A DNA stretch of 55,309 nt from the NCBI GenBank assembly GCA_964423265.1, contig CAYREF010000007.1, positions 1-55,309 on the forward strand. The letters are read 5' to 3'. The DNA is from an uncultured Actinomycetota bacterium (GTDB lineage: Bacteria > Actinomycetota > Humimicrobiia > Humimicrobiales > Humimicrobiaceae). The notes under the pieces are model-generated. The model was not told the DNA's origin and did no database searches. It was given only the letters and a program-made list of their open reading frames with translations. The translations under genes and the position numbers were made by a program. Shown here piece after piece: positions 1 to 12,671 of the stretch (positions are counted from its first letter, which is position 1; every line of letters begins with the position of its first letter).

Positions 1-112
1 TATATATTATGTCAACTTGTTTATTTAAAACAATTTTCTCTCTTTTTAACCCCTTTTAGCATTCCCTTCCCCCTCTATCGTAAAAGGTAAAAACCCACTT
101 AGGAAACACCCA

Positions 113-333
113 TTATAAGAATGTAGGATATAAAAAGTAAAATATTTCAGGCATCATAATAAATTTAAACTCTATACTTTTTAATCCAAGGTATATCGTT
201 GTTTCTAGCTCACCTTCACCATTAAAGGTTTTACCCAGCTTTACTATATCCCTTGCCATCCAGGCAGGTTTTAGCCTTAGGATGCCGTTTAACTTTTCTA
301 TTGCTTTTTCTACAATTTTTTTGTGTTTGGCAT
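113..333 (-). pseudogene. Frameshifted, truncated remnant of a conserved sugar-cluster protein (possibly cupin/phosphosugar-isomerase-like)
   Basis: ATG at 333 reads MPNTKK then hits TAG. One extra A in the A7 run gives MPNTKKIVEKAIEKLNGILRLKPAWMARD, which resembles the N-terminus (GILRLxPxWVxR) of a family I recall from sugar clusters. That frame closes at 113 after about 73 codons. Confidence 0.45.
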
Positions 334-358
334 GTTGCCCGTCTCTTTTAATATGTTT

Positions 359-2170
359 TTAATATTGTATATATAGAGGCCCAAAATTCCTACATGCCCT
401 GTAGTCTGCGCCTTCTGGATCATTGGTTCCAAATGCAGCCCATGCGCTTGGCCTAAATATCCTCTCTTCTCCAACATTATGCAGTCCAACCGGTATCCTA
501 AGCATTGAAGCAAGAGTTATAAGCTTATCTCCTATATGGCCATAACTTATTACTGCATGGTTTGCTCCCCAGTTGTTCATTAAGGTATATGTATCCCTGA
601 AAGCTCCTTTACCTGTAATTACTGGAGCAAACCAGGTGGTAGGCCAGGTGGGATCAGTTCTATCATTTAGGGTGTTATGAACTTTCTCCGGTAAACTTAT
701 GCTATATCCTTCTGCAATTTGTAGTGTCGGTCCTAGTCCCTTTATTATGTTTACCCTGGATATAGTTACAGCCATTCCTCCCCTGGTTAGAAAGTTTGCT
801 GAAAAGCCTCCACCCCTGAAGTACTCAACAGATGCAGGCCTGAACTGGGAATGTTCTATACATTTTGTAGCCTCATCATCGGTTATCTCCCAGAAGGGCT
901 TCATGGCAGGCTCACCATCTATTTCCTGCTGCCCTGTTCCATCCAGAGTGGCAGATCCTGAGTTTATAAGGTGTATTATGCCTTGTTCAGCATGGCCGGA
1001 TAAGCTGTAGCCCGTTACTCTTTTTACTGCCTCAGGGCTCCAGTAAGTCCTTACATCTGCAAATATCTGGGCAGTATCTGTTAGGAGATGGCCAAATACC
1101 ATAGGAACTGCATTTAAGCTGTCATTCTCAGTTGCAAGTATATATGGCTGCCTTATACCATTCCAGTCAAAAGAGGTATTAAGGATAGTTTCTGCAAAGT
1201 CTCCATTGGGAAAATGATCTGTCCACTGCCTTTGCCCCTGAAAGCCAGCTGCAAGGGCGTTATGGCCTAATGCTTCTTCGCCGTAGTCTAAATCAGCGAG
1301 CCTTGGATTTCCCACCATAAGGTCCCTGGCAATTAAGGTCATCTTTACCACAAATCCCCAGTCCTTATCTTTCTGTGCTCTTGAGCGCTGTATGTCCTTG
1401 GGGTTGTTATCTTTTCCCTCTTTTAAGTTATTTTTGACCCAGTCCATGGCATAATCATACTCTTTTTTGTCATAGATTTCCTCATCTATCCTTCTAATAA
1501 ACTCACTCATATCCACATATTCACATCTCATACCCAGATAGCTTTCAAAAAAGCCTGGATCCACAATAGAACCTCCAATGCCCATAGAAACATTTCCCAT
1601 GGAAAGGTAGGATTTTCCCTTCATGGTGGCTACTGCAAGGCCGGCCTTGGCAAACTGCAGTAGCTTTTCTTTAACATCTTCGGGGATGGAAGTATCTCCT
1701 GCATCCTGTACATCCCTTCCGTATATGCCGAATGCGGGAAGACCTTTTTGGTCATGGGCTGCCAAAACTGCTGCAAGATATACTGCCCCTGGTCTTTCTG
1801 TACCATTAAAGCCCCAGATAGCTTTAGGACGATGGGGATTCATATCCATGGTCTCAGACCCGTAGCACCAGCAGGGTGTAGCTGTTATGGTAAGACCTAC
1901 CCCTTCCCTTTCAAATTTTTCTTCTGCTGCTGTAGCTTCTGCCACCCCTCCTATAGTTGTATCTGCTATTACGCACTCTACAGGTAGGCCATTAGAGTGT
2001 TTTAGGTTGCTTGATAGAAGGTCGGCTGCTTGCTTTGCCATGTTCATGGTCTGCTCTTCAAGAGACTCTCTTACCCCTTTTCTTCTTCCGTCAATGGTTG
2101 GGCGTATTCCTATTTTTGGGAGGTTCCCGTGGAGTCTTTTTTTAGGCTGTGGTTTTTTAAATTCGATCAT
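359..2170 (-). CDS. fucI: L-fucose isomerase (also D-arabinose isomerase)
   Basis: [14 protein letters not shown]-terminus, [19 protein letters not shown], catalytic/metal motifs [17 protein letters not shown] and WGANH; 603 aa. Confidence 0.97.
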
Positions 2171-2197
2171 GTTTTTACTTCTCCTTTGATGGTTAAA

Positions 2198-3445
2198 TTA
2201 ATATTTTCCGAAATTATAAGCTGTATCAAGCATTGAAATAACATTTTCGGGGGGTACATCAGCCAAGATATTATGTATCTGGTTAAATACCAGTCCCCCT
2301 CCTTCGCCTAGTATTTCTATCCTTTTTTTGACATCTTCTGTTACTTTTTCCGGACTTTCTTTTGCTAGTATATCCCTGGTATTGCAACATCCGCCCCAGA
2401 ATACCAAATCTTTTCCAAATTCTTTCTTTAACTTATTGGGTTCCATATCCTTGGCAGTAGTTTGTACAGGGTTTAGCACATCCAAGCCAGCATCTATTAA
2501 ATGAGGCAAGAGTTCATATATTGAGCCGCAGGAATGTAAAAATACCTTGCAATTACTGTTCTCATGCACGAAATCCCACATTTTCTTATGCCGGGGCTGG
2601 AATACCTCTTTATAAATTCCGGGCGACATAAATGGTCCGTCTTGGCCACCCAGGTCATCGCCAAACTGCAACAAATCTACATAACCCCCTACCCCATCGA
2701 TTACCTTTTCCAATTTTTCTAAATTCCTTTCAACCAGCCTATCTAGAAGTTTTTTAGTTTTTTCTTTGTCTGCATACATGTCCATCATAAAATTAGCCAT
2801 TCCCCTAAGGAATGTTCCTGTTTCAAACATGTTACAACCTACAGCCAGGACAATGGAATAATCAGTATTTTCATACAAGTTTTTAATGCCCTCTACGAAT
2901 TGCTTGAATTGATTTTTATCAAATATATCCAAATGCCATGGAGGTGAAGGGACTGCCCAAACATGCCTATCCAGGTCTTCATCCTTAAAATTATCAGGTA
3001 TGAATGCCAAATCCTGGTAAACCCAATAGCATTGGTCTACATACAGTGAAGATTTTGGCTTTTTCCCCACCTTTATCCCCTCATTATCCATAAGATATAC
3101 AGTTCCATTATCATCAATTTCAATATTTAAAATTTTTGGTATCAGACATTTTGAGCCATCGTTTAATTCCCACTTTCTCCACTTGTCTTCAGCCGGTAAA
3201 AACCCCTGCCCTGCATCTATTGCATCTATATGGAACATCTCCATAACCTCTTCTTCAGGATAAGCCAGCTGTTGGATAAAATCATACATTCTTGGAAGTT
3301 TGTCCTTATTAAGATTTAATTTTTCCCTTAACTTATTATAGGCAATTGTAGCAATACCAGAAGAACGCATGCTGCCTAAATCTATAGGGATTCTATCAGG
3401 TTCCTGGTGTTGTAAAACTTTCCTTACTCTTTCCCTTGATTTCAT
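2198..3445 (-). CDS. Uroporphyrinogen decarboxylase/MtaA-CmuA methyltransferase superfamily protein
   Basis: EPDRIPIDLG N-terminus, GDDLG, LHSCG (HxC), LNPVQ, FWGG and HNI...VPPEN; lacks the HemE RQAGR motif. Confidence 0.85.
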   Translation of the reverse strand: MKSRERVRKVLQHQEPDRIPIDLGSMRSSGIATIAYNKLREKLNLNKDKLPRMYDFIQQLAYPEEEVMEMFHIDAIDAGQGFLPAEDKWRKWELNDGSKCLIPKILNIEIDDNGTVYLMDNEGIKVGKKPKSSLYVDQCYWVYQDLAFIPDNFKDEDLDRHVWAVPSPPWHLDIFDKNQFKQFVEGIKNLYENTDYSIVLAVGCNMFETGTFLRGMANFMMDMYADKEKTKKLLDRLVERNLEKLEKVIDGVGGYVDLLQFGDDLGGQDGPFMSPGIYKEVFQPRHKKMWDFVHENSNCKVFLHSCGSIYELLPHLIDAGLDVLNPVQTTAKDMEPNKLKKEFGKDLVFWGGCCNTRDILAKESPEKVTEDVKKRIEILGEGGGLVFNQIHNILADVPPENVISMLDTAYNFGKY

Positions 3446-3457
3446 TTATACCCCCAA

Positions 3458-4618
3458 TTAATATTTTCCATATTTTTGTAAAATCTCCCACCAGGCCATG
3501 ATATTTTCGGGCGGGACTGAACTTTGTATTATATGTATAGGTGCAAACACAAAACCTCCGCCCGGGGCCAGGTCAGAAATTCTTTTTTTGGTTTCTTCCC
3601 TAACTTCTTCAGGAGTCCCAAAAGACAAAATATTATTATCACAGCTTCCTCCCCAGAAAGTTAGGTCATTGCCAAATTCCTTTTTTAATTTTTTTGTATT
3701 CATCCCCCTGCAATTTACCTGAAGGGGGTTAAGTATATCTACTCCCGCTTCAATAAGCAGGGGCATGGCTTCTTTTATAGCACCATCACAATGGAAAAAA
3801 ATATAAACTTTAGATTTTGCCTTTTCTTTTATAAAATTAAATAATTTTTTATGGTATGGCCAAATAAGTTCTTTATATAAGCTTAAAGATACCAGTAAAC
3901 CTTCTTTAGTACCCAAATCATCAGCTGTAGATACAACTAGCACATTGTTACCCACAGTTTCCAGCGCTTTCTCCCAATACTTGCATTTTATTTCCAAAAA
4001 TTTATCCATAATAGCATGGACTAATTTTTTATTTATAATCATATCAGTAAAAAATTTTTCATAACCGGTCATCCACATGGCGTTTTCCCACATTCCCGCG
4101 CTCATTCTCTCGAGAAAATATGCCTTTTTATCTTCAAATATAACTTTATCTGCTTTTGCTTTTAAGTTTTTGAACCTTTGCTGGTCTAACGGGTCTGGCC
4201 AGGGATAATTATTAATGTCTTCTACAGAATCTGCATCACTTAACGGACTTTTATAAATATCATAAAAATGACCTCCCTCAACAGGCATACGGTACTCTAT
4301 GCCGAATTCATCCATAAGCTTCAGGTAATCACCTTCCCTGCCCAGGTCTCTTGCCCAGCCCGGCCTGGATGGTGGGTTTGGGGCTACATTTATTATGTCG
4401 ATTTTCAATCTGTCTATAACATCGTTAGTTACCTCACCTATCTGGGTAATCTTATCAAAAACTTTTGTCTCAGAGTTTAACCCCAGGTGCTCCTTTAGCC
4501 TTTTTAAAGCAATAACATTAATCCCGCAAACTAAAGCCCCTCCGAGATCAAATGGTATTTTATCAGGTTGTTTATGATTTAGTGTTTCAGATAACCTTTT
4601 TTGGCTATTATTACCCAT
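3458..4618 (-). CDS. Uroporphyrinogen decarboxylase/MtaA-CmuA methyltransferase superfamily protein (second paralogue)
   Basis: QPDKIPFDLG, YPWPDP, ADDLG, FHCDG, LNPLQ, FWGG and APIHIIQ..VPPEN; lacks RQAGR. Confidence 0.85.
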   Translation of the reverse strand: MGNNSQKRLSETLNHKQPDKIPFDLGGALVCGINVIALKRLKEHLGLNSETKVFDKITQIGEVTNDVIDRLKIDIINVAPNPPSRPGWARDLGREGDYLKLMDEFGIEYRMPVEGGHFYDIYKSPLSDADSVEDINNYPWPDPLDQQRFKNLKAKADKVIFEDKKAYFLERMSAGMWENAMWMTGYEKFFTDMIINKKLVHAIMDKFLEIKCKYWEKALETVGNNVLVVSTADDLGTKEGLLVSLSLYKELIWPYHKKLFNFIKEKAKSKVYIFFHCDGAIKEAMPLLIEAGVDILNPLQVNCRGMNTKKLKKEFGNDLTFWGGSCDNNILSFGTPEEVREETKKRISDLAPGGGFVFAPIHIIQSSVPPENIMAWWEILQKYGKY

Positions 4619-4646
4619 TATTTTTCTATTTTTACTATATATTTTT

Positions 4647-6527
4647 TTATTCTATAAATTCCAGTAAATCCAGCTCAAGCAGTTTAGGATAAGATGGGAT
4701 TCCCTTACTATCCCAGCCAGCTAGTTTGTAATATGTATCCCTTGCCTTTATGAATTCGTCCTTATTTATGGTCATCCCCTTTTTGGGGCCGCTTTCAATT
4801 GGATTAAATAATCTATCCGGAAGAATATCATCTTCTGCGCTGAATCCTTCCCTGGCAGCAAAAAGCTTATACATATTTATCCTTTTTTCACCCAATTTCC
4901 ATATTTCAAACAAAGAACTCTCCCAGCCTGTTGCTGCATTTATTATTTCAACCAAATGTTCAAAGTTAAAAAACCTAACTGGAGAAAAAGCAAAAATACA
5001 CCCACATACCGCATCTAGCATTGAAAAGGCAGGCTGAATTAAATAAAACATCCTGACTTTTTTATCATTTAAGGTTTCTGCAAAAAGTCTTTCGTAAACT
5101 GTTAAAGGTGCTACTTTATCCATAAATAGTTGTTCAGCATCAAAATCAAAATCTGTATCATGCTCTACAACTGTATAGTAGGGGCCAATGGGTGATACCG
5201 CATAACCTAGCCCTAGCATTTGCTTTACCCTGGGCTCATGTACAGGGATCTCCATTCCTTTTACGTGCATTGCATATTTTACTGAGCCTTTTATTTTCTC
5301 AGTTGCCCTTTTTACGCCTTCAGCTAGCAGGTCACCTAGATCTTTCCTATAAGTAATTTTTTTAATAGTTTCGATAATGCTTTTATGATTACCCCATTTA
5401 AGTTCAGAGCCTGAAGTTACCTCCTTTGTAATAAGTCCGTTTTCAAAACATTCAATGGCATAAGAGAGAGTAATTCCTAAAGATGTCCCATCCAGGCCAT
5501 ATTCACAAATAAGGTTCCAGATTTTTAATGCTGAATTTAAATCATCAATCAATAAATTGTATACCGAGGCTGACAGGCTTTCTAATTCTATTAGGCCAAA
5601 TCTATTATCAACATTTATTTTATCTGTTCCTTCCAATATTTTTTTACAGCCACCATAGCAGTTGTAACAGTCTATATTTTCCGGTTTATATTTTTCAGTA
5701 ATAAGAAACCCGTCAATATCATCAGCTTCTGAGAAAGTAGATGTGTGAAAATTTTTAGCAGACAGCATTCCTCCATCAGACATCAGCTTTAAATATCCAG
5801 CATTACCGGCAGGACCATGCTGGCTTTTATTGAGGGGATTGGTTAGGAAATTATCCTTAAAATATTTAGATAAAGAAGCAAGCTTTTTTTCATGTTTAAC
5901 CTTTATATTTCCAGTTCCCCTAATACATATAGCTTTAAGGTTTTTTGAGCCCATGACAGCGCCAACACCACATCTAGAGCTAATAAAAAGGTTATCATTT
6001 ACAATAGAAGCATACCGTATTAAATTCTCACCGGCAGGGCCAATTAATGCTATACGCGATTCTGTATCCTCATTTTTTAAAATATCATAAGCTCTAGAGG
6101 TTAGCTTACCCCAAACATGTGAAGCACCCCTTATTTCTACTTGGCCGTCTTTTATATAAATATAGCTTGGGTTTTCTGCTTTTCCTCTAATTACTACCGC
6201 ATCATAACCTGCTTTTTTTATCTCAGGTCCAAAAAATCCAGGGGTAGTGCTTTCGCCTACCAGATTTGTTAAAGGAGATTTTGTAACAACATTATGCATA
6301 GCTGTTCCAGGGCAATTAACTCCAGTTATCGGCGAGGTTGAAAAAATGAGAAGATTATTTTCAGAGAACGGATCTAAACCCTTGGGTAGTTCTTTTAAAA
6401 GGTAATAAGCGGCCAGGCAAGACCCGCCATAATATTTTTTATAAAAAAGCTTATCTTTCTTCTCAACATTAATTTTCCCAGCAGTTAAATCTATCCTTAA
6501 TATTTTACCAGTAAATCCATAATTCAT
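4647..6527 (-). CDS. aor: Tungsten/molybdopterin aldehyde:ferredoxin oxidoreductase family protein
   Basis: GKILRIDLT N-terminus, KSPLT, IGPAGEN, GAVMGSKNLKAI, CxxCxxxC (CYNCYGGC), LAEGV, HVKGME, DDILPDR and YYKLAGWD. Confidence 0.93.
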   Translation of the reverse strand: MNYGFTGKILRIDLTAGKINVEKKDKLFYKKYYGGSCLAAYYLLKELPKGLDPFSENNLLIFSTSPITGVNCPGTAMHNVVTKSPLTNLVGESTTPGFFGPEIKKAGYDAVVIRGKAENPSYIYIKDGQVEIRGASHVWGKLTSRAYDILKNEDTESRIALIGPAGENLIRYASIVNDNLFISSRCGVGAVMGSKNLKAICIRGTGNIKVKHEKKLASLSKYFKDNFLTNPLNKSQHGPAGNAGYLKLMSDGGMLSAKNFHTSTFSEADDIDGFLITEKYKPENIDCYNCYGGCKKILEGTDKINVDNRFGLIELESLSASVYNLLIDDLNSALKIWNLICEYGLDGTSLGITLSYAIECFENGLITKEVTSGSELKWGNHKSIIETIKKITYRKDLGDLLAEGVKRATEKIKGSVKYAMHVKGMEIPVHEPRVKQMLGLGYAVSPIGPYYTVVEHDTDFDFDAEQLFMDKVAPLTVYERLFAETLNDKKVRMFYLIQPAFSMLDAVCGCIFAFSPVRFFNFEHLVEIINAATGWESSLFEIWKLGEKRINMYKLFAAREGFSAEDDILPDRLFNPIESGPKKGMTINKDEFIKARDTYYKLAGWDSKGIPSYPKLLELDLLEFIE

Positions 6528-6533
6528 ATTAAT

Positions 6534-8039
6534 TTATACATAGTAACTTGCAATCTGGTTAGAGACTATCTTATAGCTTTCTTCGTCTTTGTTTACTTCC
6601 TCTATTTCCCCTATTATTTTTTTCTCCCTGAATATATAAATTCTGTTGGCTAGCTTAATTATTTCTGGCATATCAGAGGATATAAGGATTATTGATTTAT
6701 CCTCCTCATGAGCAAGGTTGTATATCAACTTGTGGATATACTCTTTTGCTCCCACGTCTACCCCAATAGTAGGCTCATCAAATATTATGATATCGCAGTC
6801 TGCTACCAGCCACTTGGAGATGGAAAGCTTTTGCTGGTTTCCACCGCTTAACTTCTGCGCAAGCTGATTTATGGAAGTTGCCCTTATGTCAAGATTCTCT
6901 ACCATATTTTCAGCATTTTCTATTTCCTTGCCTCCACTTACAAACCTTAGAATACGGGAGGCAATTCTGGGCCAGATTGTTATATTTACATTGGTTTTTA
7001 TGCTGGAGTTTAGAAGAAGCCCTTCTTCTTTCCTGTTTTCTGTTACATAGCCTATCCTGTATTCGTACAGGCTGTCTGCAATGGAGCGGGGATTTATTTC
7101 TTTACCCCCCACATAGACTTTTCCTGACTGTTTTCTGTCCTCTCCTATCATAAGTCTTGCAAGCTCGGTCCTTCCTGCACCCACCAGGCCATAAAATCCC
7201 AGTATCTCTCCCTTAAATAGCTTAAAGGAAGATCCTTCTGCTTTATATTCTTTGTAGATATCCTTTGCTTCTAATACTATGTTTTGCTTATCCTGGGCCT
7301 CAGACCTAAATGCCTCTATTTTTTCTTCCCTTCCTATCATCATCTTAACCAGGTCTTTTCTGTCCACTTCAGCTATCTCTTTGGTACCTATTTTTTTTCC
7401 ATCACGTAAAACCGTTACCTTATCACAAACTCTAAATACCTCTTCTAGCTTGTGGGTTACAAATAATATTACAATGCCTTTTTCTCTTAGCTCCTTTAAT
7501 ATGGAAAAAAGGGTTTTAATCTCTGTCTCTGTAATTGCAGATGTAGGCTCATCCAGCAAAAGTATTTTTGAGTTTGAGGCTAGGGCTTTAGCAATTTCAA
7601 CCATTTGCTTTTGGGCAACAGAAAGCTCACCAATAGGCTTTGTAGGGGGTATGTCAAGGCCTACCATATCCAGATAGCGCTTAGAGGTTTTATTTATAGC
7701 TTTCCAGTCAAGCACAAATCCTGCCCTTTTTTTCATCTTATCCAGCATTATATTTTCTGCTACACTGTATCTGGAAAGAACCTGAAGTTCCTGGTTTACA
7801 ACGCTTATCTCTTTTTTAAGGGCATCAATGAAGTTTTCTACTACCAGCTCATTTCCATTTACATACATCTTCCCTGTATCAGGTTTATGCACACCGCATA
7901 TTACTTTAATCAGGGTAGATTTTCCTGCCCCGTTTTCCCCAAGCAATGCATGTATCTCTCCTTGGGAAAACTCTGCTGATACCTTGTCCAGAGCTTTAAT
8001 TCCTGGAAAGGATTTAGATATATTTTCAACTCTTAACAT
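6534..8039 (-). CDS. Monosaccharide ABC transporter ATP-binding protein (RbsA/MglA type, two NBDs)
   Basis: GENGAGKST Walker A, LLDEPT, LSGGNQQK and DEPTIGVDVGAK. Confidence 0.95.
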   Translation of the reverse strand: MLRVENISKSFPGIKALDKVSAEFSQGEIHALLGENGAGKSTLIKVICGVHKPDTGKMYVNGNELVVENFIDALKKEISVVNQELQVLSRYSVAENIMLDKMKKRAGFVLDWKAINKTSKRYLDMVGLDIPPTKPIGELSVAQKQMVEIAKALASNSKILLLDEPTSAITETEIKTLFSILKELREKGIVILFVTHKLEEVFRVCDKVTVLRDGKKIGTKEIAEVDRKDLVKMMIGREEKIEAFRSEAQDKQNIVLEAKDIYKEYKAEGSSFKLFKGEILGFYGLVGAGRTELARLMIGEDRKQSGKVYVGGKEINPRSIADSLYEYRIGYVTENRKEEGLLLNSSIKTNVNITIWPRIASRILRFVSGGKEIENAENMVENLDIRATSINQLAQKLSGGNQQKLSISKWLVADCDIIIFDEPTIGVDVGAKEYIHKLIYNLAHEEDKSIILISSDMPEIIKLANRIYIFREKKIIGEIEEVNKDEESYKIVSNQIASYYV

Positions 8040-8068
8040 ATATACCCCCTACTTTTTTACCTTATTCT

Positions 8069-9145
8069 TTATTTAAAGTATTCTTCTTTTGCACTGTCTG
8101 CTAGATCTGTTGCAGCATCCCACAATTCCTGTTCAAAAGTATCTATATTATCTTCAGTTATTAGAACACCGAAGGTATCTATAAATACATGATCCTCTTT
8201 TGGCTCTAGACCATCTATCAGATACTCAAGCAGAAGTGGGGTCACATAACCCTGGCAATATGGGTTTTGGCCAAATGTTCCAGTTATATAGCCCTGTTCT
8301 ATTGCCTTTAGCACTGCAGGATCATCGTCAATTCCTACAAAAGCAATCCTATCATTTTGCTCCTCGGTAAGTATCTGAGCTGTAGCAACTGTAGGATTAT
8401 ATCCTGTGGTAACTATTCCGTCTATGTCGTCTCCCCGTGCTGCTAGAGCATTTGATACTTTCTCGGTACATTCTTCTATAGCTGTCATATCACCTATGGT
8501 CTGTACTATCTCAACATCTTCATATTGCGCAACTACTTCCTCAACACCTTCTTTTCTCAATATGGTGTTAGGATCTGTTACTACTTCAAGCACGTTTAGT
8601 ATGCCTCCACTGTAGTCCATGGCCTCGCAAACTTTTTCTGTTGCAGCCTTGGCAGCAGCTTTTACGTCAGTTGCAACTGTAAATGAAGCAGGTGTAGGTT
8701 CCTGGGTTTGTGCTCCGTAGTTGCATACATGAACACCTTCGGCCACTACTTCTTCATACAGGGCATTTGCACCTGATGCATCCAGAGGAAATACCATTAT
8801 TCCCTGATACCCCTGTGCAACAAGCGCTTCAACCTGCTCATTTTCCGTAGGCTGAGTCCAGTCTGTTCCAATTTGGGAATGAACTTCTACACCAAAGTCT
8901 TCTTTGTGTTTTTCAAGTCCTTTTTTAACAGACTCATAATAAGGGTGTACTGCCGGCCAGTACGAAGCTATCTTATATTCTTTTGCTGCAGGTTCTTCTG
9001 CTTCTGCAGGTTCTTCTGCTTCTTCAGCTGGAGCTTCTTCTTCAGCAACTGGCTCTGCTTGTTGAGCGCATCCAGCTAGTGGTAGTACAGTAAATATGGA
9101 TAGCGCTAACAGTGCCACTAATATTTTTGTTATATTGCTTTTCAT
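8069..9145 (-). CDS. Sugar ABC transporter substrate-binding lipoprotein (RbsB-like)
   Basis: Signal peptide with LAGC lipobox, Ala/Glu/Pro-rich linker, periplasmic-binding fold motifs (VGIDD, GQNPY); lies between the permease and the ATPase. Confidence 0.9.
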   Translation of the reverse strand: MKSNITKILVALLALSIFTVLPLAGCAQQAEPVAEEEAPAEEAEEPAEAEEPAAKEYKIASYWPAVHPYYESVKKGLEKHKEDFGVEVHSQIGTDWTQPTENEQVEALVAQGYQGIMVFPLDASGANALYEEVVAEGVHVCNYGAQTQEPTPASFTVATDVKAAAKAATEKVCEAMDYSGGILNVLEVVTDPNTILRKEGVEEVVAQYEDVEIVQTIGDMTAIEECTEKVSNALAARGDDIDGIVTTGYNPTVATAQILTEEQNDRIAFVGIDDDPAVLKAIEQGYITGTFGQNPYCQGYVTPLLLEYLIDGLEPKEDHVFIDTFGVLITEDNIDTFEQELWDAATDLADSAKEEYFK

Positions 9146-9232
9146 TTAAATCACCTTTCTTTTTGGATTTACAATAATTTTTCTTAACAAATCGAGCATA
9201 ACTACATTTTAATCACCTCCAAAGTCAAATTA

Positions 9233-10204
9233 TTATTCAAGCAATCTTCTCTGATTGTATATATTTCTAACCCTATCAATTCCTACAGCTACAAGGATAA
9301 GCATTCCTAAAAATGCTTGTTCCCAGTATACATTGGTGCCAAGCATAACCAGGCCATTTTTTATCATTACCATAATCCCTGCGCCCAACATAAGTCCAAA
9401 GGCAGTAATAAGGCCTCCATTTAGAGAAGTTCCACCTAGTATTGCCACTGCAAAAGAGATAATAAGCCAGTCCTGCCCAGTTACAGGAGGAGCTGTTCCC
9501 ATCCTGGATACATAAAGTACTGCTGCAAGAGCTGCTACAAATCCTGAAAGGACATGGCTTAAAATTTTTATATTAGAAGAATTGATGCCTGAAAACTTGG
9601 CAGCTTCCAGGTTTTCTCCAACTGCAAGTATCCTTCTTCCTGCTATAGTGAATTTAAAAAACAAAAATAGGACTATAAAGGCTAATACTGTAAATATTAT
9701 AAGGAAAGGTATTCCTGCTATCCTTCCCTTGCCTATAGTGGTAAAAGATAAGGGTATATTTACAAATGAATACCCTTGAGTTAAACCAAAATTTATGCCT
9801 GTAAACACAAACATATTAGCAAGGGTTACTATAAATGCATTTATGCCAAACTTGGCTGTAATTACTCCGTTTATAGCGCCACAGGCAATGCCTACTACAA
9901 GAGCTGCTGCCACTGCCACTGTCCCGTTTATCTCATGTATATCCATAAGATAGCCAGCAGTAATAGTAGCGAGCCCCCCTATTGCTCCCACCGAGAGGTT
10001 CATATCTCCCACTACCAATACTATTCCCTGGGCTAGCCCTATAAAGGCATAAAGAGATAAGGTTCTTCCCAGAGTATACATGTTATAAGCGCTAAGAAAG
10101 TTTTCAGAGGCAAAGGTCAAGACTAAAAAAAGTGCCAGTGCCGCAATAAATAAACCAAAGTTTCCGGTAGTCAGAATAGATCTAAAATAGTCTTTTTTGG
10201 CCAA
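9233..10204 (-). CDS. Monosaccharide ABC transporter permease (RbsC type)
   Basis: Multi-TM protein with MNLSVGA, GRRILAVGENLEAAKFSGI and AILGGTSLNGG; TTG start preceded by AGGAG. Confidence 0.93.
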   Translation of the reverse strand: MAKKDYFRSILTTGNFGLFIAALALFLVLTFASENFLSAYNMYTLGRTLSLYAFIGLAQGIVLVVGDMNLSVGAIGGLATITAGYLMDIHEINGTVAVAAALVVGIACGAINGVITAKFGINAFIVTLANMFVFTGINFGLTQGYSFVNIPLSFTTIGKGRIAGIPFLIIFTVLAFIVLFLFFKFTIAGRRILAVGENLEAAKFSGINSSNIKILSHVLSGFVAALAAVLYVSRMGTAPPVTGQDWLIISFAVAILGGTSLNGGLITAFGLMLGAGIMVMIKNGLVMLGTNVYWEQAFLGMLILVAVGIDRVRNIYNQRRLLE

Positions 10205-10233
10205 TTTAAACTCCTTTTTTTCTTTTTTAAAAA

Positions 10234-10956
10234 TTAATTTTTGTTTTGAATTTTATTTTTTGAAATTAAGTTAAAGTTCCTCTTAACAAAATTAATATGG
10301 TCTTTTAAGCTTCCCACAGCCTTTTTTTTATCTCTGTTTTTTATACCTTCAAATATTTTTTTGTGGTCATTATAAGTATCTACCATAACTCCTGGTATTT
10401 CAGTAGTGTCAATTAAAATTTCAGAAATACTATATTTTAATAAAGGAAAAATTACATCAAAATAATTTTTTATAACTTCATTGTTAGTAGATTCTGCTAG
10501 CTTATTATGGAATTCATAATCCAGTTTTACAAATTGTTTTTTGTTTTCTTTTTCTACATAAAATTTCGTCAGTTCCAAATTTTCCCTTAAATTATCTATA
10601 TCCTCCGGTGTAGCATTGTCTATTGCTATATTAACCACAATAGTCTCAAAAATTTCTCTAAATTCTAACAAGTCTGGAATTAGCTTATCATCTGGCCTAT
10701 ATATTAACCTGGCTGGATTAAAAAAAGAACTTAGTGAAAAGTCCTTTATAAAAGTTCCAATTCCAGGTTTTACCTCAAGAATATCAACCAACTCTAACGC
10801 TTGCAATGCCTCCCTGACACTTCCCCTTCCCGTATTATATTTTTTACAAAGTTCCTTTTGGGATGGAAGTGCCTGACCTGAGGTTAGGTTGCCTTCTTTA
10901 ATATCTTCTAATATGTTGTCTATAATTACTCTTGGAGTTTTTTCTCTTTTAGACAT
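10234..10956 (-). CDS. FadR/GntR family transcriptional regulator
   Basis: wHTH (LPSQKEL...GRGSVREALQAL...PGIGTF) plus FCD domain (D.EFH). Start moved to ATG 10956 (10968 also possible) because the ORF-track TTG at 11016 is the -35 box of a promoter. Confidence 0.9.
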   Translation of the reverse strand: MSKREKTPRVIIDNILEDIKEGNLTSGQALPSQKELCKKYNTGRGSVREALQALELVDILEVKPGIGTFIKDFSLSSFFNPARLIYRPDDKLIPDLLEFREIFETIVVNIAIDNATPEDIDNLRENLELTKFYVEKENKKQFVKLDYEFHNKLAESTNNEVIKNYFDVIFPLLKYSISEILIDTTEIPGVMVDTYNDHKKIFEGIKNRDKKKAVGSLKDHINFVKRNFNLISKNKIQNKN

Positions 10957-10987
10957 AATACCTATCATACCTGTAAAACTTCTTTCC

Positions 10988-11016
10988 AATATAATTAATA
11001 ATGAGGTTTTTGTCAA
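10988..11016 (-). promoter_or_regulatory. Sigma70/SigA-type promoter for the fadR-ABC-aor-uroD-like-fucI operon
   Basis: Minus strand TTGACA (11016-11011), 17 bp spacer, TATATT (10993-10988). Confidence 0.75.
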
Positions 11017-11022
11017 ACCTAT

Positions 11023-12024
11023 TTATGCCATCCCGGAAGAACCTCTTATTATTAACTCTGTTTTCAAAACTATGTTTTGAAAATTTGTTACCTTATCTTT
11101 TTTATCAATTCTTTCTATTAACAACTCTGTAGCAGTTTTACCTAAGTTATAAGTGGGCTGGCGTACACAAGTTACCGGAGGTTCGGCTATTCCACTCCAT
11201 TCGGGGTCATCAAAACCCACTATTGCTATATCCTCAGGAATTTTTAAACCCAACTGCTTTATAGTTTTTATAGCCCCCATAGTTATATCTAAATTAGCAG
11301 TAAATATTGCCTCAGGCCTGTTTCTTTCAATAAGTTCTTTGGATAGCTCCAATCCGCTCTTTTTTTTGAAAGTCCCGATTTTTATAAGATCATTATTTAC
11401 TTTTAAGCCAGCATCTTTTAAAGCACGCAAGTAGCCCTCTAACCTTTGTTTACCTGTGGTTCTGTCTACATAGCCGTTAATGATTGCAATTTTTTCATAC
11501 CCATTATCTATAAGATGCTTAACTGCCTCATAAGCTCCGTTAAAATTATCAACTATTACTGAATCACACTCAACAGAGTCAATTACCCTATCTATTAATA
11601 CTAAATTTGTTCCCGTTTTTAAAATATGGTTTATGTAATCTACAACTTTTCCAGTGGGGGTCAAAATTATTCCATCTACTCTATTGGAATTTAAGATTTT
11701 CAAATATTTTAATTCCTCACTGGAGTCATCATCCCCATTACATAAAATTATATTGTAGCCATATTTTTTTGCTGTATCTTCTACCGACTTTGCAATAACT
11801 GAATAAAAATAAGATAATACATTACCGACTATTACCCCGATAGTGTAAGTCTTTTGGCTTTTAAGGCTTCTAGCAATTGAATTAACTTCATAATTAAGGT
11901 CTTCAATTGCCTGTAGAACTTTTTCCCTTAATTTAGGGCTAACAAATTTATTATTATTTACAACAGCTGATACAGTTGCGCTAGAGACTCCAGCCTGTTT
12001 TGCTACATCTTTTTGTGTTACCAT
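11023..12024 (-). CDS. LacI family transcriptional regulator
   Basis: TQKDVAKQAGVSSATVS HTH, ARSLK hinge, IPEDIAIVGFDD and PVTCVRQP. Confidence 0.96.
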   Translation of the reverse strand: MVTQKDVAKQAGVSSATVSAVVNNNKFVSPKLREKVLQAIEDLNYEVNSIARSLKSQKTYTIGVIVGNVLSYFYSVIAKSVEDTAKKYGYNIILCNGDDDSSEELKYLKILNSNRVDGIILTPTGKVVDYINHILKTGTNLVLIDRVIDSVECDSVIVDNFNGAYEAVKHLIDNGYEKIAIINGYVDRTTGKQRLEGYLRALKDAGLKVNNDLIKIGTFKKKSGLELSKELIERNRPEAIFTANLDITMGAIKTIKQLGLKIPEDIAIVGFDDPEWSGIAEPPVTCVRQPTYNLGKTATELLIERIDKKDKVTNFQNIVLKTELIIRGSSGMA

Positions 12025-12034
12025 TATGTGCCAT

Positions 12035-12086
12035 CTATACGTTTAACTATACGTATAACTATATACCAATTTTTTTTCCATTGCAA
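12035..12086 (-). promoter_or_regulatory. lacI promoter with tandem CG-centred candidate operators
   Basis: TTGCAA (12086-12081), 17 bp, TATAGT (12063-12058). Immediately downstream are 12-bp tandem repeats CTATACGTTTAA / CTATACGTATAA (12035-12058), the second containing the palindrome TATACGTATA. Confidence 0.6.
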
Positions 12087-12110
12087 AATATTTTTATAAT
12101 TTATTCAAGA

Positions 12111-12671
12111 CTAATTGTTATCTTTTATGACTTTAGCAGGATTGCCCACAGCCAAACAATTCCCTGGAATAGAATCAAGCACCAGTGAATGGGCACCGAT
12201 AGTAGTATTGTTTCCGACCTTAACTGGTCCTAGAATTGTAACATTGGTATATAGATTAACATTGTCTCCAATCCTAGGATAACCTGGTTTCCCATGATGA
12301 AAAATAGAATGGCCCAACCCCCCTAAAACTACATTGGAGAATATACTAACGTTCTCCCCTATTTCTACCCCCCTGCCGATTATAACGCCTGCGGTATGCC
12401 ATATCCTACAGCCAGATCCTATTTTAGAACCAGGATCAATCTCTGCACCTGTAAATAGAAAATTAATTCTTGCACAAATTTCAGCTAGCAGCCTTAACTT
12501 TATTTTATATAATTTATGATAAAAACGGTAAAATAGTAAAGCTTGGACCCCCGGTTTAACTAGCAGCACCCTTATTGCGTCCCAAATACTTGGCCTACCC
12601 TTTATTGTTCCATATTTACTAAAAAGGCGCCTTATATCACCTGTAAGGCTGCCCTGTTTAGTTTTTTCCAT
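12111..12671 (-). CDS. cysE: Serine O-acetyltransferase-like hexapeptide-repeat acyltransferase (CysE/EpsC family)
   Basis: PGVQALLFYRFYH, TGAEIDPGSKIG, left-handed beta-helix repeats and AVGNPAK; the substrate loop is divergent, so specificity is uncertain. Confidence 0.65.
   Translation of the reverse strand: MEKTKQGSLTGDIRRLFSKYGTIKGRPSIWDAIRVLLVKPGVQALLFYRFYHKLYKIKLRLLAEICARINFLFTGAEIDPGSKIGSGCRIWHTAGVIIGRGVEIGENVSIFSNVVLGGLGHSIFHHGKPGYPRIGDNVNLYTNVTILGPVKVGNNTTIGAHSLVLDSIPGNCLAVGNPAKVIKDNN

Follow-up and report, generated by a model that had tools for sequence, protein, structure and literature searches.

Two URO-D-fold proteins and an aldehyde:ferredoxin oxidoreductase in a fucose isomerase operon of an uncultured actinomycetotal bacterium: candidate pathway for O-demethylation of a methylated sugar

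The window analyzed here is the whole of contig C7 (bases 1-55309) from an uncultured, anaerobic bacterium of the Humimicrobiaceae (Actinomycetota), whose assembly (G000) comprises 1.98 Mb in 107 contigs and is 97% complete. Eight minus-strand genes, all co-oriented and located within 359-11016, were assigned from the open reading frame (ORF) listing and by Pfam and NCBIfam searches. They code for a regulator, a sugar importer of the ATP-binding cassette (ABC) type, an aldehyde:ferredoxin oxidoreductase (AOR), two proteins of the uroporphyrinogen decarboxylase (URO-D) fold, termed P0001 and P0002, and the isomerase FucI. We put the genes ahead of fucI forward as a candidate cassette for uptake and corrinoid-dependent O-demethylation of a methylated fucose-type sugar. 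The features are as follows.

11016..10988, minus strand: sigma-70-type promoter TTGACA-17-TATATT, 11/12 consensus matches
10998-11009 / 11015-11026: inverted repeat of 12 nt, 83% complementary, overlapping the -35 hexamer
10234..10969, minus strand: GntR-family regulator with FCD effector domain (Pfam: GntR 59.4 bits, FCD 74.7 bits), start ATG 10969 or 10954
9233-10204, minus strand: CUT2-type sugar ABC permease (BPD_transp_2 123 bits; AraH-/RbsC-like, below cut-offs)
8069-9145, minus strand: lipoprotein sugar-binding protein (Peripla_BP_4 147 bits) with LAGC lipobox and acidic Pro/Glu/Ala linker
6534-8039, minus strand: sugar ABC ATPase, two fused ATP-binding cassettes (ABC_tran in two stretches; AraG-like, 491 bits against a cut-off of 689)
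4647-6527, minus strand: tungsten-type AOR (AFOR_N 237 bits, AFOR_C 311 bits)
3458-4618, minus strand: P0001, URO-D-fold protein of 386 aa (Pfam URO-D 79.3 bits), candidate methyl-sugar:corrinoid methyltransferase
2198-3445, minus strand: P0002, URO-D-fold protein of 415 aa (Pfam URO-D 77.9 bits), candidate methyl-sugar:corrinoid methyltransferase
359-2170, minus strand: L-fucose / D-arabinose isomerase FucI (NF008220 1095 bits against 775; TIGR01089 1063 against 850)
11023-12024, minus strand: LacI-family regulator (LacI and Peripla_BP_1/3) with promoter-like sites of its own

Operon anatomy and contig setting

Counted from the regulator to fucI, the intergenic gaps amount to 29, 87, 29, 6, 28, 12, and 27 nt, and a minus-strand scan inside the eight-gene array revealed no convincing terminator. 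The promoter at 11016..10988 is the best of 43 promoter-like sites in the region 1-12500 and the sole one with 11 of 12 matches. Because shuffled sequences yield 40.0 +/- 7.2 such sites, so that the total is not above chance, the support for this promoter comes from its quality and position only. The initial annotation had described eight tightly spaced, co-oriented genes behind one near-consensus promoter, and this description is confirmed by the promoter site, the gaps of 6-87 nt, and the family assignments. It had opened the regulator ORF at 11016, which does not hold: the TTG at this position falls within the -35 hexamer, and the regulator thus probably starts at ATG 10969 or 10954. The inverted repeat over the same hexamer is a possible operator. 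The adjoining LacI-family gene stops 7 nt short of the promoter, on its upstream side.

The regulator, previously labeled FadR, is by its domains an FCD-type GntR protein of the FadR subfamily but not FadR itself. Its best NCBIfam models are NanR, LldR, and PdhR, also GlcC, all below cut-off, and the UxuR and ExuR models are among its matches as well. The nearest solved chains of the binding protein are CUT2 binding proteins (4rs3 and 5hko, E ~6e-16); a search of solved structures for its sugar specificity gave no informative match. FucI carries all three domains (Fucose_iso_N1, N2, and C), is single-copy in the genome, and has the ribosome-binding site AAAGGAG 8 nt upstream of its ATG. The AOR is closest to P. 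furiosus AOR (1aor, E 7e-107) among solved structures, also matches FOR (1b25, E 1e-78), shows the cluster motif C-x2-C-x3-C as DCYNCYGGC, and is the sole AOR homologue in the genome, bound to this operon.

The last gene of the operon is fucI, and contig C7 stops 358 nt beyond it. In the relative G156, the next gene after fucI is convergent. Window positions 1-358 share short repeats with G000:C12:30321-31497 (86 nt at 93%, 32 nt at 97%, and 27 nt at 93%), and homologues of the genes at the C12 end sit convergently behind fucI in a relative. The C7 end thus probably adjoins the C12 end.

The closest public loci are from low-GC metagenome-assembled genomes (MAGs) of Actinomycetota, including Candidatus Humimicrobium oleiphilum, and three microbial mat metagenome DNA runs (X1-X3) contain 61-97% of the sampled words. 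Contigs of related strains from the three metatranscriptome runs X10-X12 cover 24, 17, and 25 of the 30 operon bins at 90-99% identity, and one such contig bridges the junction between the ATPase and binding-protein genes (7834-9015); these contigs show presence only, not transcript ends, DNA carry-over is possible, and uncovered bins are uninformative. In these RNA contigs, 3 nt are deleted at 9001 and loose ends are numerous at 8986-9025, around the region 8990-9110 with the long acidic linker that follows the lipobox; this suggests strain-to-strain length variation of the binding-protein linker.

Fold, motifs, and family of the URO-D-fold proteins

P0001 and P0002 are paralogues with 33% sequence identity. 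A UroD/MtaA-type (beta/alpha)8 barrel is confirmed for both by Pfam and by structural models (AlphaFold pLDDT 84.3 for P0001 and 89.2 for P0002). The best PDB fold for P0002 is the Methanosarcina mazei methyltransferase MtaA (4ay7, E 6e-13, TM score 0.69), while P0001 matches best to UroD (3cyv) and to MtaA (4ay7/4ay8, TM scores of 0.72-0.73). Taken over the two proteins, MtaA and UroD head the structural matches, and zinc MetE comes next. N-terminal extensions of 40-70 residues are found in both, and P0002 has an extra insertion.

By sequence comparison, each of the two proteins belongs to a large, slowly evolving family. The best 120 homologues are 62-82% identical to P0002 and 61-95% identical to P0001, and the P0002-family profile matches 1,548 clusters (50% identity level) at E <= 1e-30. 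The few named homologues carry the label 'methyltransferase' or that of a 'uroporphyrinogen decarboxylase family protein' and come from MAGs of Actinomycetota, Planctomycetota, and Cyanobacteriota. In the automatic look-alike clusters, the commonest taxa are Verrucomicrobiota, Bacillota, and Fidelibacterota.

The motif LHSCGS is invariant in the P0002 family and aligns with LHICGN of MtaA (4ay7), which holds zinc ligands. The P0001 family has the invariant motif FFH-x-DGA ... WGGSCD, with invariant H276, D278, and C326 at matching places; P0001 thus has a His-Cys-Asp set, Asp occupying the Cys position of His-x-Cys. Among the nine URO-D paralogues of the genome, His-x-Cys is kept by P0002 and only one other. 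Homologues encoded beside corrinoid proteins retain either HSC or HCD.

HemE function is rejected for both proteins: P0002 scores 22.9 bits against the TIGR01464 cut-off of 302.95, and P0001 gives no match. Membership in the MtaA, MtbA, or CmuA equivalogs of NCBIfam is likewise rejected (26-46 bits against cut-offs of 235-600). The best methyltransferase-model scores are 45.1 bits for P0001 and 45.7 for P0002 against 244, and the MtaA equivalog gives 30.7 and 45.1 bits, respectively, against 400.

Corrinoid proteins, downstream genes, and related sugar loci

The initial annotation had stated that the window contains no corrinoid protein, activator, kinase, or aldolase. This is borne out: family searches of the genome placed no corrinoid protein, RACo, FGGY kinase, or class II aldolase on C7, and BLASTP of C7 with the genome's own corrinoid protein, pterin-type methyltransferase (MT-II), activator, kinase, and aldolase copies found none either. 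In the genome as a whole, there are four small corrinoid proteins with D-x-H-x-x-G, three Pterin_bind matches, two RACo_C_ter matches (RACo activators), one MttB-family protein, and acetyl-CoA synthase (ACS), the Wood-Ljungdahl enzyme. The parts that were missing from the window were thus recovered as far as corrinoid proteins, RACo, and ACS are concerned, whereas no FucK or FucA was found at equivalog cut-off. None of the eleven FGGY matches reaches the fuculokinase or rhamnulokinase cut-off, and the class II aldolases score below those for FucA.

One corrinoid protein gene (G000:C2:10017-10646, L125) is an orphan, with riboflavin-synthesis genes and a uracil-DNA glycosylase gene as neighbors. 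Its orthologues (63-97% identity, some partial) occur in most sampled genomes of the family. In a complex model of P0002 with this orphan protein, ipSAE is 0.67 (runs 0.68, 0.67, and 0.61), the best of three controls being 0.00. Of 80 solved complexes, 58 attain the mark applied, as do 2 of 110 mismatched pairs; this calibration is only approximate here as the alignments were custom-made. The runs show at least 64% contact agreement and a partner pLDDT of at least 80. In the model, residues 216-225 and 269-277 on the C-terminal (catalytic) face of the P0002 barrel contact the corrinoid protein at its cap helix and His loop. Such a pass shows a modeled likeness to methyltransferase-corrinoid protein pairs, not binding.

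A corrinoid protein is encoded in 37 of 41 genomes sampled from the organism's family; for genomes in both family samples, it is found in 15/15 with a URO-D match (E <= 1e-40 to P0002) and in 3/7 without, though kin are not independent. Among Bacillota, it occurs in 31/31 genomes with a P0002-profile match and in 275/370 others, again among non-independent kin, and with 306 of 401 genomes positive it is too common to discriminate well.

A second sugar locus of the same genome (G000:C5:17000-43500; L120, L121) carries genes for a LacI regulator, a CUT2 ABC system, rhamnose mutarotase (RhaM), an FGGY kinase, a xylose-isomerase-like TIM barrel, a class II aldolase, and a second ABC set. Also present are four URO-D paralogues, two corrinoid proteins, and an MttB-family methyltransferase, together with an isochorismatase-family protein, an amidohydrolase_2 protein, and a 471-aa protein without Pfam match. 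One of the URO-D genes directly adjoins a corrinoid protein gene. To judge from its gene content, C5 is a rhamnose-type counterpart of the window operon with the corrinoid parts in cis. We had considered that URO-D proteins might take the place of kinase and aldolase by acting as a fuculose-cleaving enzyme. This was dropped because C5 has kinase, isomerase, and aldolase beside its four URO-D genes and its corrinoid proteins and because the microcompartment locus described next encodes a class II aldolase.

This locus (C38:1150-18058; L127, L129) is one long minus-strand array. It begins with genes for an acetate-kinase-like protein, DeoR, bacterial microcompartment (BMC) shell proteins, an RnfC-like protein, a class II aldolase, and a PduL-like protein, continues with an acylating aldehyde dehydrogenase, lactate racemase LarA, and a FAD-linked oxidase (D-lactate dehydrogenase-like) with a CCG/Fe-S subunit, and ends with GcvH, RACo, an SBP_bac_3 protein, and a pterin-binding methyltransferase. 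The array looks like a fucose/rhamnose-type microcompartment, followed by genes for lactate use and a methyltransferase unit, and the microcompartment may supply the route downstream of FucI. That its RACo and pterin methyltransferase link deoxy-sugar catabolism to methyl transfer was considered and rejected, as GcvH and SBP_bac_3 genes lie in between and point to a unit of their own.

Related arrangements occur in other lineages. On the metagenome contig L097 (GC 54%; proteins 25-53% identical to those of this genome), the gene order is URO-D, RhaM, URO-D, creatininase-family gene, sugar ABC, corrinoid protein, and a P0002 relative (43% identity). Of 401 Bacillota genomes sampled, 31 match the P0002 profile, and 20 regions were taken from 16 of them. 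Region L221 has the order LacI, ABC, P0002-like gene, two genes, corrinoid protein, and pterin methyltransferase; no other candidate for the substrate:corrinoid methyltransferase (MT-I) was recognized there. Region L230 starts with an SSF transporter, cupin, HpcH aldolase, 2-hydroxyacid dehydrogenase, P0001-like gene, and KduI, and continues with a creatininase-family gene, AOR, MBL-fold gene, zinc-dependent alcohol dehydrogenase, corrinoid protein, and pterin methyltransferase, a content that indicates a sugar-acid locus. The corrinoid proteins beside P0001- or P0002-like genes in L097, L030, L221, and L230 have the orphan C2 protein as their closest relative, those of L097, L221, and L230 being 48-59% identical to it.

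A creatininase-family gene is found beside URO-D-like genes in two unrelated sugar loci (L097:2227-3003 and L230:11461-12309), and a homologue is encoded in this genome at G000:C13:2178-3011.

The initial annotation had also pointed out that canonical fucose catabolism needs no AOR, which is fair. AOR homologues (31-38% identity) lie a few genes from P0001-like genes in 3 of the 20 Bacillota regions, one of which also has an HpcH-type aldolase. Such aldolases release lactaldehyde from 2-keto-3-deoxy-6-deoxy-aldonates. The AOR of the operon probably oxidizes lactaldehyde, or glycolaldehyde if the sugar is D-arabinose-like, with ferredoxin as acceptor. In region L229, an S-Me-THD-like (DUF917-type) protein is encoded between AOR and the P0001-like gene (L229:12004-13122), and a 379-aa protein occupies the equivalent position in L232 (L232:11582-12718).

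P0002 relatives were surveyed in 10 genome and 80 metagenome loci, with up to 10 kb on each side; many contigs are short, and 50 of the 83 from outside the operon lineage have at least 8 kb. Within two genes of the P0002 relatives, 194 of 232 neighbors were scanned (all 44 with more than 560 aa and 150 of the 188 shorter ones). The large ones include GH38 domains (10), SSF transporters (5), and sulfatases (3), the shorter ones xylose-isomerase-like TIM barrels (6) and RhaM (5), plus ABC parts. Outside the lineage, RhaM is found at 7 of 83 loci at BLAST level. These neighbors mark the P0002 family as a sugar-locus family that is not specifically devoted to fucose.

The GH38 alpha-mannosidase N-terminal domains are encoded next to P0002 relatives with 40-48% identity (L052-L112), which hints that one subfamily works on a mannose-type substrate. 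At L161 and L162 (G115 and G364), a second P0002 paralogue (~61% identity) is accompanied by two CUT1 ABC sets and a 988-aa protein; next to it is a divergent MttB-family gene, which is followed in L162 by a corrinoid-protein gene.

Proposed pathway, alternatives, and known systems

We consider it about 50% probable that the cassette serves the import and corrinoid-dependent O-demethylation of a methylated fucose-type sugar and thereby feeds FucI, with corrinoid protein, MT-II, and activator provided in trans and the AOR acting on the aldehyde. From the promoter at 11016, a single transcript would cover the import and initial processing of a fucose-type monosaccharide that carries methyl groups; O-methyl-L-fucose is our best guess, and a methylated D-arabinose-configured sugar is also possible. 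After import by the CUT2 ABC system, P0001 and P0002 would act as MT-I enzymes, each probably specific for one methyl position and each probably activating the ether oxygen via a metal site based on His and Cys or Asp. The methyl group would be passed to a Co(I) corrinoid protein encoded elsewhere, for which the orphan C2 protein is the best candidate. A pterin-type MT-II would then move it to tetrahydrofolate and on to the Wood-Ljungdahl pathway, while RACo would keep the corrinoid reduced. FucI would isomerize the freed sugar, whose catabolism would be finished by an FGGY kinase together with the class II aldolase from the C38 microcompartment. The AOR would convert the aldehyde product, most likely L-lactaldehyde, to the acid and thus generate reduced ferredoxin, which could also serve CO2 reduction and corrinoid reactivation. 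Low-potential electrons from the AOR for these two purposes would fit a yield of one methyl and one aldehyde per sugar.

The initial annotation had suggested that the URO-D pair may be MtaA/CmuA-type corrinoid methyltransferases acting on an O-methyl sugar, or else carry out another sugar-modifying reaction. The methyltransferase view is partly supported: it gains indirect support from the fold, the His-x-Cys motif, the genome inventory, the C5 locus, the loci L097, L221, and L230, and the docking model; it loses from the wider neighborhoods. These do confirm a recurrent linkage to sugar loci, some with a corrinoid protein, whereas linkage to fucI is confined to the family.

Several observations weigh against the proposed pathway. 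A profile search found a corrinoid protein at only 2 of the 90 surveyed loci (L097 and L030), which corresponds to 2 of the 83 outside the operon lineage, and at 2 of the 20 Bacillota regions. Outside the lineage, BLASTP with this genome's proteins at 50% coverage, a search that misses distant homologues, detected neither FucI nor AOR beside P0002 relatives (0/83 each). In C5 and L162, a corrinoid protein has an MttB-family gene, and not a URO-D gene, as its partner. C354, the second Cys of P0002, is not conserved in L097, L229, and L232, so that the metal site is not defined. With respect to the sugar branch, the best fuculokinase score is 174 bits against an equivalog cut-off of 471. Characterized corrinoid methyltransferase systems are usually clustered, while C7 itself lacks the corrinoid parts, and an aliphatic methyl ether is chemically more resistant to attack by Co(I) than aryl ethers or methyl halides are. 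The usual ligands of FCD-type regulators are carboxylates, and O-methyl-fucose is none. To this adds a comparison with CdmB, the chloromethane MT-I of Acetobacterium: its genes are clustered as cdmBCA (PMC13222342), whereas the parts are unlinked here, and its match to the two proteins is marginal (E 0.0013-0.0056) and confined to the last 75-80 residues. As CdmB is the only characterized MT-I in the PDB sequence set, the placement by sequence relative to MT-I enzymes depends on it alone.

The scarcity of corrinoid proteins is what one would expect if the URO-D-fold pair were cobamide-independent, metal-dependent sugar-modifying enzymes (isomerase, epimerase, decarboxylase, or hydrolase) acting on a fucose- or rhamnose-type sugar or sugar acid, with nearby corrinoid proteins serving other methyltransferases. 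Most family neighborhoods have sugar genes but no corrinoid protein, the MttB-family gene is available as partner of the corrinoid protein near C5 and in L162, the fold is shared with cofactor-free UroD, the presence of an FCD regulator and an AOR suggests that carboxylates or aldehydes are involved, and creatininase-family gene, KduI, and HpcH aldolase accompany relatives. We nevertheless regard this explanation as rather unlikely. In L221 and L097, the URO-D-like gene is the sole recognizable MT-I beside the corrinoid protein, whether a pterin methyltransferase is present or not; His-x-Cys aligns with the zinc ligands of MtaA; the docking model passes all three controls; kinase, isomerase, and aldolase of C5 make its four URO-D genes surplus to a plain sugar pathway; and HemE-type function is excluded by score.

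The linkage to fucI has a history of its own. Eight sampled family genomes, G000 included, have the full operon with AOR at >= 64% identity, and the genome-contig locus L029 has it without P0001. In G402, G342, and G403 (L172, L174, and L176), the other seven genes are absent, and fucI has the LacI gene and the same upstream genes as its direct neighbors. These upstream genes also precede fucI in G407, where no LacI match was listed. A ribulokinase-like FGGY kinase follows fucI in G401 and G403. Given the LacI-fucI adjacency in kin, the regulator, ABC system, AOR, and two URO-D genes represent a cassette between an older LacI-fucI pair. By their distribution, these genes behave as a cassette that was inserted, or lost elsewhere, and that has its own promoter and regulator. 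Its co-transcription with fucI could therefore be historical, which adds to the points against demethylation of a fucose-type sugar. A differently built unit, with a divergent CUT1 ABC system and two other URO-D paralogues, lies beside fucI in G129. Within the family, fucI-URO-D adjacency thus occurs in two arrangements (the operon and the divergent unit of G129), and the link to fucI is real but lineage-bound and arose at least twice.

An ordinary L-fucose/D-arabinose operon could look similar if the cassette had merely been inserted upstream of fucI, with the URO-D genes serving housekeeping or one-carbon functions and the AOR being a general aldehyde scavenger. This is consistent with the three related genomes in which LacI and fucI are adjacent, with the absence of FucI from the 83 wider neighborhoods, and with an organism that is rich in one-carbon methyltransferase parts regardless. 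Yet the cassette has its own importer and regulator and is separated from fucI by 27 nt that contain no terminator, sugar loci of at least three further lineages also include URO-D paralogues, a second URO-D/ABC unit of different build abuts fucI in G129, and the AOR is single-copy and operon-bound. We hence consider such an operon improbable.

The regulator bears on the methyl donor. FCD regulators typically bind carboxylates, the matches include the UxuR and ExuR models, and carboxylates are far superior to alkoxides as leaving groups. The proteins might thus be corrinoid-linked methyltransferases with a donor other than an O-methyl ether of fucose: a methyl ester, a 4-O-methyl uronate or other methylated sugar acid, or another methylated small molecule; or P0002 might be an MtaA-like MT-II that transfers to a thiol, with P0001 as the MT-I. 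The company of the P0001-like gene in L230 (KduI, HpcH aldolase, and 2-hydroxyacid dehydrogenase) would agree with a sugar acid, the retention of His-x-Cys in only P0002 and one other of nine paralogues with an MT-II role, and the cassette is separable from fucI. On the other hand, the transporter is of CUT2 type, with nearest solved relatives that bind neutral sugars or polyols, and neighbors such as RhaM, FucI, and GH38 are indicative of neutral deoxy-hexoses and mannose. Some P0002-like genes have no P0001 with them and are located next to a corrinoid protein plus a pterin MT-II, which would leave no need for another MT-II (L221 and L029). In the eight family genomes that have the AOR at >= 64% identity, moreover, fucI stays with the cassette, to which it is translationally close at a distance of 27 nt. 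A different donor therefore appears doubtful, and we retain O-demethylation of a methylated fucose-type sugar as our working proposal.

More tentatively, and with less confidence than for the operon itself, we suggest that P0001 and P0002 represent a large and widespread URO-D branch of oxygen-independent sugar O-demethylases, which would transfer methyl groups of fucose, rhamnose, mannose, and other sugars to corrinoid proteins. O-methylated sugars are common in plant pectin, in algal and cyanobacterial polysaccharides, and in bacterial glycolipids, with 2-O-methyl-fucose, 3-O-methyl-rhamnose, 3-O-methyl-mannose, and 4-O-methyl-glucuronate as examples. A literature search, with most subscription journals outside its coverage, retrieved no paper on a URO-D-family or corrinoid-dependent sugar demethylase or on anaerobic removal of sugar methyl ethers; other papers that it retrieved mention where O-methylated sugars occur. 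If the suggestion is correct, it would fill this gap, the methyl decoration of polysaccharides would be a direct source of one-carbon units and energy, and methoxydotrophy would extend from aromatics to carbohydrates. In this operon, coupling to the AOR would be stoichiometric, electrons from lactaldehyde turning CO2 and the sugar methyl into acetyl-CoA, and a function would be available for thousands of genes labeled uroporphyrinogen decarboxylase or methyltransferase. If it is wrong, the P0002 family is still a large, slowly evolving, sugar-locus-associated group of enzymes without an assigned reaction.

Among known systems, the closest parallel is found in the three-component corrinoid O-demethylase/methyltransferase systems (CdmBCA of Acetobacterium and the vanillate and veratrole O-demethylases). 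According to PMC13222342, CdmB has the form of a URO-D-like TIM barrel and acts together with a corrinoid protein and a pterin-type MT-II, and zinc is present in some O-demethylase MT-I enzymes and absent from others. A URO-D-fold TIM-barrel MT-I is thus common to these systems and our proposal. A base-off/His-on corrinoid protein, a pterin MT-II, and a RACo-type activator are all encoded in this genome, and MT-I, corrinoid protein, and MT-II genes are clustered in the relatives L221 and L230. The systems differ in that the likely substrate here is a sugar (an aliphatic ether) rather than an aryl methyl ether or methyl halide, and in that the candidate MT-I genes are part of a sugar import/isomerase operon, with corrinoid protein, MT-II, and activator unlinked. 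In relation to CdmB in particular, the likeness is C-terminal only (E ~1e-3), and the P0002 family has many polar invariants as opposed to a hydrophobic, aromatic cavity (PMC13222342). The MT-I tree of that paper has clades marked 'unknown substrates' (legend of its Fig. 5), and this tree may already contain the P0001/P0002 family.

MtaA/MtbA (4ay7/4ay8) are the top structural match of P0002 and among the top matches of P0001, with the His-x-Cys of P0002 aligned. Differences are the NCBIfam scores below cut-off, the N-terminal extensions, the insertion in P0002, the His-Cys-Asp set of P0001, and the bacterial host.

The E. coli-type fucose regulon consists of FucI, FucK, FucA, and FucO/AldA. 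It shares with the operon a FucI at equivalog level, and class II aldolases and FGGY kinases are encoded elsewhere in the genome. In contrast to that regulon, the operon has no FucK or FucA, uses an ABC importer, has the AOR in the place of AldA/FucO, and includes two additional URO-D-fold genes. A microcompartment of the Planctomycetes/Verrucomicrobia type processes fucose and rhamnose. The C38 locus resembles it in its shell genes, class II aldolase, PduL-like phosphotransacylase, acylating aldehyde dehydrogenase, acetate-kinase-like gene, and DeoR, but is located on another contig, so that a link to the operon is presumed from gene content. In marine bacteria, a cytochrome P450 demethylates 6-O-methyl-galactose in a reaction that needs O2 and releases formaldehyde. 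Both there and in our proposal, a sugar would be O-demethylated ahead of its ordinary catabolism within a sugar-utilization locus; the route proposed here would be anoxic, and the methyl group would be conserved on the corrinoid.

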